Of a stretch of DNA of 64,000 bases, positions 18,794-57,534 are shown in pieces (the stretch's first letter is position 1; every line of letters begins with the position of its first letter). Both the position numbers and the translations under genes were made by a program. The stretch covers positions 19,974 through 83,973 of the forward strand of contig JAGVAE010000002.1 of assembly GCA_020060565.1 (NCBI GenBank). Direction: 5' to 3'. The notes below the pieces were generated by a model. It did not search any database. It was not told the DNA's origin and saw only the letters and a program-made list of their open reading frames with translations. The stretch comes from Candidatus Woesebacteria bacterium. Its GTDB lineage: Bacteria; Patescibacteriota; Microgenomatia; UBA8517.

Positions 18794-18896
18794 TATTTTT
18801 GCTATTCTATACTTGCAAAGTAATTATTGTCAAATTTGACCAAACCCTCCATCAATCCCAAAGTTATACACTTTGAAAATATTTTTCAACGTTTTG

Positions 18897-18967
18897 TGGG
18901 CTCGGAAGGAGTCGGACCTTCGCGATTACTTTATAAGAGTAACGTCCTACCGTTGAACGACGAGCCC
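18897..18967 (-). tRNA. tRNA-like gene with anticodon TAT (putative tRNA-Ile(UAU))
   Basis: Minus strand folds as acceptor GGGCTCG/CGAGCCC + A73, D-arm GTTC-AACGGTA-GGAC, anticodon arm TTACT-CTTATAA-AGTAA (U33, anticodon UAU, A37), 4-nt variable loop, T-arm GAAGG-TCCGACT-CCTTC. Position 55 is C, not the usual U. Confidence 0.5.
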
Positions 18968-45843: not shown

Positions 45844-45983
45844 TTTCTTATTTAATATTAGCACTTGACGAAGAAGTTAGTTAAAAGTAAATTGAACAAG
45901 TTGGTGAATTACGGTGTAATTCCGTAGATGTGCCGCAACTGTATATCCAGAGCCCAATTTAGCTTAGAAACCCGAGCAGGAAA

Positions 45984-46955
45984 ATGAAAAAAGAAAGAAT
46001 TAAACTTTTTGATACTTCTCTTTACAAACATAGTAATCCTGGTGTTGTTGCGGAAGACTTAGCTGGACTCTATATTGAAGCTGGAGATTCCACTTTATCC
46101 GAAAGAATTAATGCTAGAAAATTAAAAATACTTGATAGTAAGATTGTAGATCCTAAAACCAATAAAGAACTGCCTGGGAACTTAAAACGTTCTACTGTAT
46201 TGGACAACATGGAGGCGGATTCAGCAGAATCTTTTTACAAACAAATAGTCGATGGTAGTATTATAACCATTTCCTTTAGTCCCCCTGGAGGAATTTCTCC
46301 ATACAAAGAGGGTAGAATTAATGTTGGGTACAGATCATCACACGATGAAATGGAATTTTACGGAATCCCAACCAAGATGTCTTCTGGGGAAATGTATGCA
46401 AGAAGTGTTATATTGTCTGAATTTTCCAATTTACCTTTCTCAGAAATCAAAAATTCTGAACAGTTAAGACAAATATCTTTGCCTATTTCAATTCCTTCAA
46501 TAGAAGAGTCACCTTGGGATTTTTTAGAAGAAGTATTACCACTCGACAGTAACGCTTGGGAACATATTAGAAACGGTAAACCTTGGATTATTAAAGAGAA
46601 GGCATTGAGAGATGCCTCACTTTTTGCACCCACAATGTTTAGGATGATTTATTCAGCAAGAACTGAAAATGATTATATTGTTGCTGGTATCTATGGAGAA
46701 AAAAACATGGAACAAATGGGATGGAAATTGAATTCTGGATCGTGTCCAGGTAAAACAAATTCACAACTGGCAGATCCAGTTTCAACAAACGAAAGAAAAT
46801 TTGTCACCGATGCGTTTGGAAATACCAGAGAGGTTACAGAATCATCTTTCCCCTGTCCAAGATGTGGAGGTTCAATCTCCTCGGGGTTTGGTATTACAAC
46901 TTGTCCACATTGTGGACTAACAAAAGAGCAGGCGGGATCAACGTGTGGATCTTAA
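45984..46955 (+). CDS. hypothetical protein with C-terminal zinc-ribbon (CPRCGG...CPHCG)
   Basis: 323 aa. Only the terminal 4-Cys cluster is recognisable. The inverted repeat GAATTACggtGTAATTC in its upstream region is noted. Confidence 0.5.
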   Translation: MKKERIKLFDTSLYKHSNPGVVAEDLAGLYIEAGDSTLSERINARKLKILDSKIVDPKTNKELPGNLKRSTVLDNMEADSAESFYKQIVDGSIITISFSPPGGISPYKEGRINVGYRSSHDEMEFYGIPTKMSSGEMYARSVILSEFSNLPFSEIKNSEQLRQISLPISIPSIEESPWDFLEEVLPLDSNAWEHIRNGKPWIIKEKALRDASLFAPTMFRMIYSARTENDYIVAGIYGEKNMEQMGWKLNSGSCPGKTNSQLADPVSTNERKFVTDAFGNTREVTESSFPCPRCGGSISSGFGITTCPHCGLTKEQAGSTCGS

Positions 46956-55589: not shown

Positions 55590-55660
55590 ACAAGATGTAT
55601 TTTACTAGGAAGTTCTAAGTATTACACTTGGTTTATCAAAGTTGAATCTAAAAATCTATG

Positions 55661-55953
55661 CTCCCCGGGCTGGATTCGGACCAGCGACCTTATTCTTACA
55701 ATTGCCCTTCTGTTACCAAAAGGATTGGACTATCTCATCCCGCCTAAATATTAAATTTTTGGTGGGTCAGGTATATAGTCTCTACACATTTACTACGTTC
55801 ATGTAAACTGAACGTGGATTTAGCTCGGGATTACCCAAAGATTTCTCCTAGGGTTTCCCCGAATTAGCCTGATTTTCCACTCCGAATTACTTCGAAGCGC
55901 TGCCTTAGACCTATAGTCGACAGGAATCCGCTCTACCGCTGAGCTACCGGGGA
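55661..55953 (-). tRNA. tRNA-Asn(GTT) interrupted by a group I intron (exon 1 55920-55953, exon 2 55661-55698)
   Basis: Exon 1 TCCCCGGTAGCTCAGCGGTAGAGCGGATTCCTGT + exon 2 TAAGAATAAGGTCGCTGGTCCGAATCCAGCCCGGGGAG gives a 72-nt cloverleaf: U1-A72, D-loop AGCGGUA, anticodon loop CUGUUAA (identical to E. coli tRNA-Asn), T-arm GCTGG-TCCGAAT-CCAGC, G73. CCA not encoded. Confidence 0.75.
55699..55919 (-). mobile_element. group I intron (221 nt) in tRNA-Asn anticodon loop between positions 35 and 36
   Basis: 5' exon ends in U, which can pair with G of the candidate IGS GCAG (in ...AAGGCAGCG...). Intron ends in G (..CAATTG). Core elements resemble R (GTAGAGACTATATACC) and S (GAGATAGTCC), which pair to form P7 (GACTA/TAGTC). 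Too short to encode a protein. Confidence 0.7.
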
Positions 55954-55976
55954 TTATAAAAGAACGCCTGATTATA

Positions 55977-56315
55977 TCAAATAAAGGGATTGTCTGAAAG
56001 CTTGATTAATCCCCCATGGATTTCTCTATGGCAATTTGAACAAACCAGAAGACATTTATCAACTTCCTCCTTAGTTTTTTCCCAACTTCTAGTTAATCCC
56101 CTGGTTGACAAATTAAACCCTTTTTTCTTTTCGTCTAAATGGTGAAAATCTAAAGCGCCAATATATTTAGAATAACCACAGATTTGACATTTACCACCCT
56201 TAAGTTCGACTGCCAGAGATTTTAGCTTTTTTCTTCTTTTGGTTACAGCCAGAACCAAATAATGAGCTCTATCTCTGTATGTTCTAGTCTCTTTCTTTCG
56301 GGTTTTGTTGGGCAT
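55977..56315 (-). CDS. HNH endonuclease (free-standing)
   Basis: CQICG...HHLDEKKKG...N...CSNCHREIH (HNH/zinc-binding). 112 aa. Stop codon is 23 nt upstream of tRNA-Asn exon 1. Confidence 0.8.
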
Positions 56316-56343
56316 TATTCATCATAATTCATTTGTTTGTACC

Positions 56344-57534
56344 ATGTCAAGAAAAGTGTTGTATAATCGTTTCATGGCTACGGATTGGATTAAAAAACAG
56401 GTCGATGAACTCAAAGATCAGCACCTTTATAATAATATCTTAACCATAGAAAGCCCCATTGGTCCCGAAATTACTATAAACGACAAAAAACTGCTTAATT
56501 TTTGCTCCAATAACTATCTTGGACTTGCCAATCACCCCAACCTTCGTGAAGCTGCAAAAGCTGCAATTGATAAATTTGGTATTGGTCCTGCTGCAGTTCG
56601 CACTATTGCTGGTACCACCTCACTTCACAAAGAACTTGAAGAAAAACTTGCTAAATTTAAGAAAGCTGAAGCTGTTATTACTTTTCAGACTGGTTTTGTT
56701 GCAAATCTTGCTGTTATCCCCGCTTTAGTAGGTGAGGGTGATTTGATTTTTTCTGATGAACTAAATCATGCAAGTATTATTGATGGCTGTAAATTAACCA
56801 AGGCTGAAGTTATTAGATATGCACACATTTCTCCTTCTGATTTGGAAGAAAAGTTAAAAGCTGCTCCTAAAGATTGTAAAAAACTAGTTATTACTGATGG
56901 GGTTTTTAGCATGGATGGAGACATTGCCCCACTAGACAAAATCTATGAGGTTACTTCTAAGTATGGTGCTATGCTCATGGTAGATGATGCACATGGAGAA
57001 GGGGTACTGGGTGAGAGCGGACGTGGAATTGTAGATCATTTCCATCTTCATGGAAAAGTTGATGTTGAGGTTGGGACTATGAGTAAAGGTTTTGGTGTTA
57101 TGGGAGGGCTTGCTGCGGGAAAGCTTGAGGTCATTGAGTGGCTAAGTCAAAGAGGGCGACCTTTTCTTTTTAGTAGTGCCATGACAATTCCCGATGTGGG
57201 AGCTTGTATTGCGGCTGTTACTCTACTTGAGAACTCAGGAGGCTTGGTTAAAAAGCTTTGGGACAATGCTGATTACTTAAGATCCGGTCTCAAAAAACTT
57301 GGTTTTGATACAGGAACATCCATTACACCCATCATTCCTATCATGCTTGGCGAGGCTGAGACTGCACAGAACATGAGCAAAAAGTTGTTTGAAGAAGGAC
57401 TTTTTGCTAAAGCCATTGTCTATCCTACTGTCCCTCAAGGTAAAGCTAGAATTAGAGTTATGAATTCCGCAGGACATTCCAAGGAACAGCTGGATAGAGC
57501 TTTAGAAATTTTTGAAAAATGCAAGCCCTCATAA
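56344..57534 (+). CDS. kbl: 2-amino-3-ketobutyrate CoA ligase (glycine C-acetyltransferase), PLP-dependent AOS family
   Basis: [26 protein letters not shown] and PLP-lysine region TMSKGFG. Start taken at M14 to avoid divergent overlap with the HNH gene (ORF track starts at 56305). Confidence 0.85.

Follow-up and report, generated by a model that had tools for sequence, protein, structure and literature searches.

Can a group I intron that carries no open reading frame (ORF) for a protein be mobilised by an endonuclease gene standing just outside the tRNA gene that it interrupts? The question is raised by positions 55,661 to 56,315 of a 64,000-nt stretch from a Candidatus Woesebacteria bacterium (GCA_020060565.1, contig JAGVAE010000002.1, positions 19,974 to 83,973 of the forward strand; the whole stretch is referred to as the window, and positions are those of the window). 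Here the two halves of a tRNA-Asn(GUU) gene enclose a 221-nt intron, and a free-standing gene for an HNH-type endonuclease lies 23 nt upstream of the tRNA. These features had been placed correctly to the base by the original prediction, which was made from the sequence and which proposed that the HNH protein could be a homing endonuclease that had moved outside the intron. From comparison with relatives in bacterial genomes, metagenomes and viral contigs, we consider the HNH protein to be, probably, a homing endonuclease that is specific for tRNA-Asn and works from beside its intron.

An interrupted tRNA-Asn(GUU) gene

All features of the locus lie on the minus strand. The 5' exon of the tRNA (34 nt, 55920..55953) ends in CUGU, with U35 as its last base, and has the same sequence in loci L001-L014 and in the intronless loci L093-L115. 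It is followed by the intron (55699..55919) and by the 3' exon (38 nt, 55661..55698), which runs from UAAGAAU to GGGGAG, has G73 as discriminator base and does not encode CCA; the anticodon stem covaries across relatives. Joined, the exons form the canonical 72-nt tRNA that had been predicted, a cloverleaf with U1-A72 and G73 that is called tRNA-Asn(GTT) by ARAGORN, and the spliced product is identical at 72/72 positions to 17 uninterrupted tRNA-Asn genes in relatives. Two oddities of the spliced tRNA are a G27.A43 mismatch and, in the T loop, a C in place of the U (pseudouridine 55) that tRNAs almost universally have at this position. The T loop of the window tRNA-Asn reads UCCGAAU; the tRNA-Ile(TAT) of the window also has GGUCCGACUCC, and the usual GGTTCGAATCC is found in some empty tRNA-Asn alleles (L098, L107).

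Plain ARAGORN called no tRNA at the split locus. Its intron mode returned a tRNA-Thr(TGT) with an intron at 33/34, two bases earlier; this call was rejected, as it would need an intron ending in U, ignores the U35.G guide pairing and conflicts with the 72/72 identity to intronless tRNA-Asn genes. The same Thr(UGU) miscall at 33/34, by two bases, is documented for this intron family (PMC13011429). It is shown that a Patescibacterium of the Woesebacteria type has its tRNA-Asn(GUU) gene split here, between positions 35 and 36 of the anticodon.

A fit of the intron to the Rfam group I model RF00028 and a mapping of its helices had been proposed as a check on the original prediction. The model matched 55934-55706 (minus strand) at 81 bits (cut-off 50; E 5e-19), a cut-off that was also passed by 10 of 12 close loci and 17 of 20 further loci, and all helices could be assigned. 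In P1 (55923-55919/55904-55900), the exon end CUGU and the first intron base, C, pair with GGCAG, U35 forming a wobble pair with G55903. P2 is formed by 55898-55891/55886-55879, P3 by 55872-55868/55771-55767, P4 by 55863-55857/55830-55824, P5 by 55853-55849/55838-55834 and P6 by 55815-55809/55801-55795. P7 is the pairing of GACTA (55780-55776) with TAGTC (55732-55728), followed by P8 (55766-55761/55744-55739), P9.0 (55725-55724/55702-55701), whose pairs covary, and P9 (55723-55717/55712-55706). The last intron base is the terminal G (omegaG) at 55699. The group I hallmarks read from the letters at the outset (a 5' exon ending in U35, an intron ending in G and the P7 pairing) were thereby all recovered.

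Covariation was assessed in an alignment of 12 sequences, comprising the window intron and 11 relatives, and pairs were counted on a hand-named structure consisting of the anticodon stem, P1-P5, P7 as a pseudoknot, P8, P9.0 and P9. A structure obtained with RNAalifold was dropped in favour of the hand-named one, because P3 and P7 form a pseudoknot and the program drew P7 as a local hairpin. Standard pairs filled 94.9% of the cells, and compensatory changes on both sides were found in 26 of 51 pairs, values that 0 of 500 shuffles attained; slid controls gave 2-10 pairs with both-side changes and 35-50% of cells paired. P7 is invariant across the alignment, which fits the fold and is uninformative for covariation.

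At the splice sites, the U35.G wobble with the guide sequence GGCAG was invariant in 12/12 sequences, the P1 pair of the first intron base covaried across 72 loci (GC in 43, AU in 9, CG in 8, GU in 2 and UG in 1), and a terminal G was present in every intron examined. The window intron has no ORF for a recognisable protein (its sole ORF of at least 50 aa is a chance one of 54 aa on the opposite strand), and the P7.1/P7.2 hairpins of many relatives that carry the HNH gene inside the intron are missing from it. The interruption is shown to be a group I intron, compact and ORF-less, whose ribozyme fold is conserved and covaries. By analogy with what is known of the family, the window intron would excise itself with a guanosine cofactor, using the U35.G pair of P1 at the splice site and ending at omegaG. 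The layout of the window is not chance, because it recurs in 12 metagenome loci (HNH proteins 77-85% identical) with identical exons and diverged, covarying introns of 177-195 nt.

An intron at this position of tRNA-Asn had been thought unusual, and this did not hold. Group I introns at 35/36 of tRNA-Asn(GUU) in Patescibacteria have been published (Nakagawa et al., mSystems 2026, PMC13011429; preprint July 2025, bioRxiv 10.1101/2025.07.03.662931), they are the commonest tRNA intron in this group, and precise self-splicing in vitro was shown for the homologous tRNA-Asn intron of GCA_016700035.1 (PMC13011429). The published introns have host gene, insertion site, phylum, Rfam family, Thr miscall and HNH family in common with the window. 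They differ from it in the place of the HNH gene, which lies inside 4 of 15 tRNA-Asn introns in that study, whereas the window intron is short and its HNH gene lies 23 nt outside the tRNA. The endonuclease search in that work covered only ORFs inside introns of >500 bp, and its conclusion was that most tRNA introns are without endonuclease genes and that their transfer is limited (PMC13011429). A free-standing or adjacent HNH gene is mentioned in neither the paper nor the preprint version, and the accessible part of the tFind preprint (10.1101/2020.01.27.920355) mentions neither Asn nor HNH.

An HNH family tied to tRNA-Asn genes

A scan of one genome per species yielded 80 loci encoding the HNH family (56-73% identical among loci), which span many lineages of the Candidate Phyla Radiation (CPR) as well as Omnitrophota, Elusimicrobia and Margulisiibacteriota. 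In 78 of them the HNH gene has a tRNA-Asn 5' half no more than about 100 nt away, a limit that rises to about 400 nt for genes lying after the tRNA. No tRNA other than tRNA-Asn was found near the HNH gene in the 80 loci, and splicing in silico gave tRNA-Asn(GTT) in 85/85 products. Metagenome loci agree: an RF00028 intron lay directly downstream, with identical exons, in all 10 HNH-bearing loci that were long enough to judge. The HNH family is shown to be tied to tRNA-Asn genes almost everywhere it occurs.

The position of the HNH gene relative to the tRNA varies among the 80 loci. It lies inside the intron, between the tRNA halves, in 48 loci and probably in 3 more, with introns of 502-621 nt; the ORF of this inside form occupies the P1 loop, with its final codons extending across the guide sequence, P2 and P3. 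It lies upstream of a tRNA with an intron of 174-317 nt, as in the window, in 19 loci and probably in 1 more. Upstream of an intronless tRNA-Asn it was found in 4 loci and downstream of the tRNA in 3, and in 2 the contig ends before the position can be judged. The HNH gene is thus immediately upstream of the tRNA in about a quarter of the intron-bearing HNH-family loci, a figure that describes a sample selected on HNH and not the fraction of all short introns. With same-family genes in the P1 loop of 48/80 loci, the comparative data fit the suggestion that the window HNH is a homing endonuclease that has moved out of an intron. One allele with the HNH gene inside the intron, from a Berkelbacteria metagenome-assembled genome (L017:749-1400), has apparently lost the 3' portion of its ribozyme by deletion, together with the 3' exon on the anticodon side, and may be a pseudogene.

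More than 550 HNH relatives, 48-71% identical, were found on viral contigs, and the best 80 of them were analysed (L116-L195, IMG/VR contigs). Most of these 80 loci hold several tRNA genes. A tRNA-Asn(GTT) lies within 250 nt of the HNH gene in 51 of the best 80, directly downstream in 28 (mostly at 6-18 nt) and directly upstream in 23, and tRNA-Asn accounts for only 60 of the 458 tRNAs in the 80 loci. The tie of the phage HNH genes to tRNA-Asn holds without an intron, which points to the tRNA-Asn gene itself as the likely target. To our knowledge, this link of HNH genes to tRNA-Asn in viral loci has not previously been described. One contig labelled viral (L116) carries a tRNA-Asn of the inside type, with a 544-nt intron.

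The HNH gene of the window (55977..56315, minus strand) encodes 112 aa with two CxxC pairs, an HH motif and the motif NCHREIH. The protein has >1,100 homologues, the named ones from Patescibacteria, and is matched by PHROG phage HNH families at E 1e-28 to 1e-20; some of its homologues have a precomputed match to Pfam PF01844. An exact-sequence look-up of the protein returned no record. Across 15 homologues there is no variation in the two CxxC pairs, the HH motif and NCHRE (among them C43, C46, H58, H59, C92, N94, C95 and H96), and at least 90% of them have H100. An AlphaFold2 model (predicted local distance difference test, pLDDT, 84.8) consists of a long N-terminal helix and a beta-beta-alpha core with strands at 55-59 and 88-92 and a helix at 93-100, in which block-averaged pLDDT is about 81-95. 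In the model, the two zinc-binding Cys pairs, the catalytic His (on strand 1) and the metal-binding His (on the helix) are predicted to be arranged on the beta-beta-alpha core as in an HNH nuclease, and the top Foldseek matches in the PDB are all HNH/Endo VII proteins (Cap5, the Cas9 HNH domain, Gme HNH and T4 endonuclease VII). Ratios of nonsynonymous to synonymous change (dN/dS) were 0.03-0.09 among free-standing copies of the window clade, at saturated synonymous sites, and were similar in other outside, downstream and inside copies. By this measure the free-standing HNH gene has long been maintained as a working protein.

Allele states and the case for homing

Metagenomes were scanned for the spliced exon junction, which yielded 23 loci (L093-L115) with an intronless tRNA-Asn 66-72/72 identical to the window exons, 17 of them at 72/72. 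The HNH gene was absent from all 23 of these junction-matched loci. An uninterrupted tRNA-Asn elsewhere had been named at the outset as an observation that could count against the intron; such genes do exist in relatives, and the intron is not refuted by them, because empty alleles of this kind are expected for a mobile element. In several empty alleles kbl abuts the same tRNA promoter, and others match the context of L006. Occupied and empty alleles interleave in the kbl tree (L014 pairs with L098, and L010 with L099), and in pairwise alignments the occupied and empty alleles differ by clean indels, exactly two in number: the intron and an HNH block of about 375 nt. All HNH-positive loci of the window clade carry the intron.

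Two promoter-like sites accompany these indels. The putative tRNA promoter (TTCAGA, 16-nt spacer, TG-n-TATAAT; 55971..55998, minus strand), identified by motif match, has a -10 box that overlaps the HNH stop codon, and the motif is kept in occupied, empty and intron-only alleles of the window clade. A candidate promoter of the HNH gene (TTGACA, 18-nt spacer, TATGAT; 56321..56350, minus strand), identified by an 11/12 consensus match only, lies in a region that is missing from empty alleles.

The names attached to RpoD assign the organism to Woesebacteria. A further sample was anchored on RpoD and so not conditioned on HNH or intron. It contained 4 lineages with an empty tRNA-Asn locus, plus L114 (also empty; probably a member of P0121, the closest RpoD cluster), 2 lineages with the intron and no HNH gene (L221 and L223) and 0 lineages with HNH present. 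A strict co-occurrence of HNH and intron, which the first two samples had suggested, is refuted by these intron-only alleles. Overall, all four allele states exist, as would be expected of a cycle of invasion, endonuclease loss and intron loss.

Intron and HNH gene also have discordant histories, judging from sequence identities. In L013 the HNH protein is 81-86% identical to the window clade, and the intron is only 70-74% identical to those of that clade but 85% to that of L067. Aligned to window 55699-55919, this intron (L013:2897-3101) is 72% identical, between the same exons and with the same 23-nt spacer, which suggests that the intron of L013 has been replaced. The HNH of L018 is 63% identical to that of L014, and its intron is 94% identical.

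On the reading that we favour, the pre-tRNA would be transcribed from its own promoter, overlapping the HNH stop codon, and the HNH protein would recognise the intronless tRNA-Asn gene and nick or cut it. Repair from the occupied allele would then copy the intron into the empty allele, often together with the linked HNH gene, depending on tract length. The intron could outlast the loss of the HNH gene, and as both can be lost, populations would hold mixed states. The arrangement in the window probably arose from an intron with the HNH gene in its P1 loop, by a rearrangement that re-created a 5' exon and a short P1 loop downstream of the ORF. Several features usually asked of a homing system are present. 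Linkage to the proposed target site is seen in 78/80 bacterial and 51/80 viral loci, and presence/absence polymorphism at the same locus takes the form of interleaved alleles, clean indels and intron-only alleles. An ORF-less intron next to a free-standing endonuclease gene is the configuration of collaborative, or trans, homing. Co-inheritance is mixed: HNH-positive loci of the clade have the intron and the 23 intronless loci lack HNH, yet intron-only alleles and HNH genes beside intronless tRNAs occur elsewhere.

Two phage systems are the nearest analogues. In trans homing of T4 MobE and nrdB, a free-standing HNH-family gene stands beside a gene whose group I intron is without a working endonuclease, and the intron can be mobilised by this neighbour through gene conversion (PMC2790892, Wilson and Edgell 2009). 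MobE is a phage gene of unrelated sequence that nicks nrdB and not a tRNA gene, and the corresponding activity of the window protein is a prediction; moreover, the nrdB intron keeps a dead ORF (the defunct I-TevIII), whereas the window intron has none. Collaborative homing of F-CphI and psbA in cyanophage S-PM2 likewise joins an ORF-less group I intron to an adjacent free-standing endonuclease, which targets the intron insertion site of the intronless psbA allele (PMC6083498 and work cited there). F-CphI differs in having an Endo VII-type motif and a protein-coding phage target. Unlike F-CphI, the window HNH family is also found inside the intron in relatives, so that both states exist in nature. 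Free-standing homing-type endonuclease genes are also known from phage tRNA clusters (T4 SegB and HNH enzymes of T5), where their presumed role is to cut the DNA of competitors in the adjacent tRNA region; these tRNA-cluster systems are without an intron, and SegB belongs to the GIY-YIG enzymes.

Repeated exits of the HNH gene from the intron, probably by partial duplication followed by loss of the ORF from the new P1 loop, are favoured because of four observations. First, in a neighbour-joining tree of the HNH protein, which is only indicative for so short a protein, outside forms fall in at least 8 places among inside forms. Second, L019 (HNH inside) and L020/L035 (outside) do not differ in their exons, have intron cores that are almost the same, and share the TGGTATACT box that precedes the ORF. 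Third, the spacers of outside forms differ, from -10 to 96 nt. Fourth, L031 has a decayed 5'-exon end (15/18 matches, p ~0.004) upstream of the ORF, where the inside form has the real exon. In L031 (L031:2298-2760) the HNH gene lies upstream of an intronless tRNA-Asn, and the intact tRNA gene is followed, after about 15 nt, by a partial copy of itself (26/28) that covers the anticodon stem and loop and extends into the T stem. Only in L031 did a vestigial 5' exon before the ORF reach significance; in the window clade it did not. Derivation of the tRNA promoter (TGATATAAT-CAGGCG) from a decayed intron J2/3-P3 (GGAAAATCAGGC) was also considered; it reached only p 0.03 in the window and was not significant in most lineages, and it was not relied on, as the same promoter is also present in empty and intron-only alleles.

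Several observations weigh against the HNH protein as a homing endonuclease that has left its intron. The close relatives L221 and L223 (RpoD 94% identical) have the intron only, so that HNH is dispensable for its presence. An HNH gene stands beside an intact intronless tRNA-Asn in 5 bacterial loci and many phage loci; if the protein cuts intronless tRNA-Asn, such neighbours need explaining, possibly by self-immunity, by nicking only or by a different target. The HNH and host kbl trees agree for the window, L010, L013 and L014, with similar divergences, a pattern that long vertical descent with losses would explain as well as homing. The Pfam score is low and the structural matches are weak: PF01844 scores 19.5 bits, under a cut-off of 21.4 that is the threshold of one model and not a structural criterion, the Foldseek matches have E of at least 0.14 and template modelling (TM) scores of about 0.3-0.4, and a PDB sequence search gave McrA at a similarly weak E of 0.077. 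Distribution and parsimony are the grounds for the direction from inside to outside, which is not secure. Remnants of ribozyme or exon around the ORF were sought and mostly did not reach significance, with L018 (p 0.002), the window (p 0.03) and L031 (p 0.004) as exceptions. Finally, alleles without the gene also contain the tRNA promoter and the terminal 27-33 nt of the window-clade ORF, which could equally mean that a cassette was inserted into an empty site.

The last two of these points are also what would be seen if the endonuclease had stood free first, that is, if an old tRNA-Asn homing endonuclease had later invaded the intron by the Bonocora-Shub route and the window preserved the ancestral state or a fresh insertion. 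The shared end of the ORF would then mark a cassette inserted upstream and reading into host sequence, and the phage relatives that stand free beside intronless tRNA-Asn would have kept the older habit. We regard this order of events as unlikely. The inside copies have one homologous P1-loop arrangement across many CPR phyla and three others, whereas the outside copies differ in their spacers and occupy at least 8 separate places in the tree; the exon remnant of L031 sits exactly at the exon position of the inside form; and L019 compared with L020/L035 looks like a recent change from inside to outside. Both directions of movement may have occurred at different evolutionary depths, and the deeper ancestor of the HNH family may have been free-standing too, because the phage relatives are.

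A third view takes the HNH gene for a relic passed on by vertical inheritance, or for a nuclease domesticated by the host (for example, in defence or in processing linked to tRNA-Asn), that mobilises nothing, with patchiness from repeated deletions. In its favour, a purely selfish gene would not usually be under strong purifying selection, over saturated synonymous divergence, once fixed; the four taxa shared by the HNH and kbl trees are arranged alike in both; and intronless tRNA-Asn genes beside an intact HNH gene are evidently not destroyed. This view is improbable: a tie to one tRNA gene in both bacteria and phages, inside or beside the intron insertion site, is predicted by target-site linkage and explained by no host function, intron and HNH histories disagree, and empty, intron-only and occupied alleles interleave among close relatives.

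Neighbouring features and significance

Directly 3' of the tRNA-Asn (from window position 55660 downwards; L001-L012) sequences diverge completely, even between contigs with identical HNH proteins. Serine recombinase and helix-turn-helix genes lie directly 3' of the tRNA-Asn in L006-L008, and small GIY-YIG genes lie 3' of it in L010 and L202-L204; the 3' end of the tRNA-Asn has the look of a hotspot for integration. In Woesebacteria contigs L197-L201 and L205, a 333-aa ORF with faint LAGLIDADG matches lies near NUDIX genes, at a distance of about 3.6 kb on the upstream side of rpoD. Elsewhere in the window, a tRNA-Ile with anticodon TAT (UAU) was called by both ARAGORN and Rfam at 18896-18967 (minus strand); tRNA-Ile(UAU) is an uncommon bacterial means of reading AUA codons. 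A match to the AdoCbl-II (cobalamin) riboswitch RF01689 (39.5 bits, cut-off 36.5) was found at 45889-45960 (plus strand), directly upstream of the ORF at 45984-46955.

The tRNA-Asn intron itself is now textbook knowledge for Patescibacteria, and its practical use is as an annotation warning, as standard tools miss the tRNA-Asn gene of the window or call it tRNA-Thr. What is new here is the conserved, probably relocated endonuclease gene beside it and the family-wide tie to tRNA-Asn, which together offer a case in which trans or collaborative homing could be tested for a bacterial chromosome. The relatives beside tRNA-Asn in phage tRNA arrays suggest a nuclease with a short, highly conserved natural target, and hence a candidate enzyme. 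How mobile introns are put together and dismantled is an old question, on which the inside and outside states of one endonuclease family bear. More tentatively, one HNH family may have kept its tRNA-Asn target while its gene moved repeatedly among the intron interior, the flanks of the tRNA and phage tRNA arrays. If so, these loci would form a series, found in nature, of the ways in which group I introns and homing endonucleases become associated and separate again, and many of the tRNA introns in reduced CPR genomes that seem to be without an endonuclease would still be mobile, by way of a neighbouring gene that surveys confined to the intron have missed.

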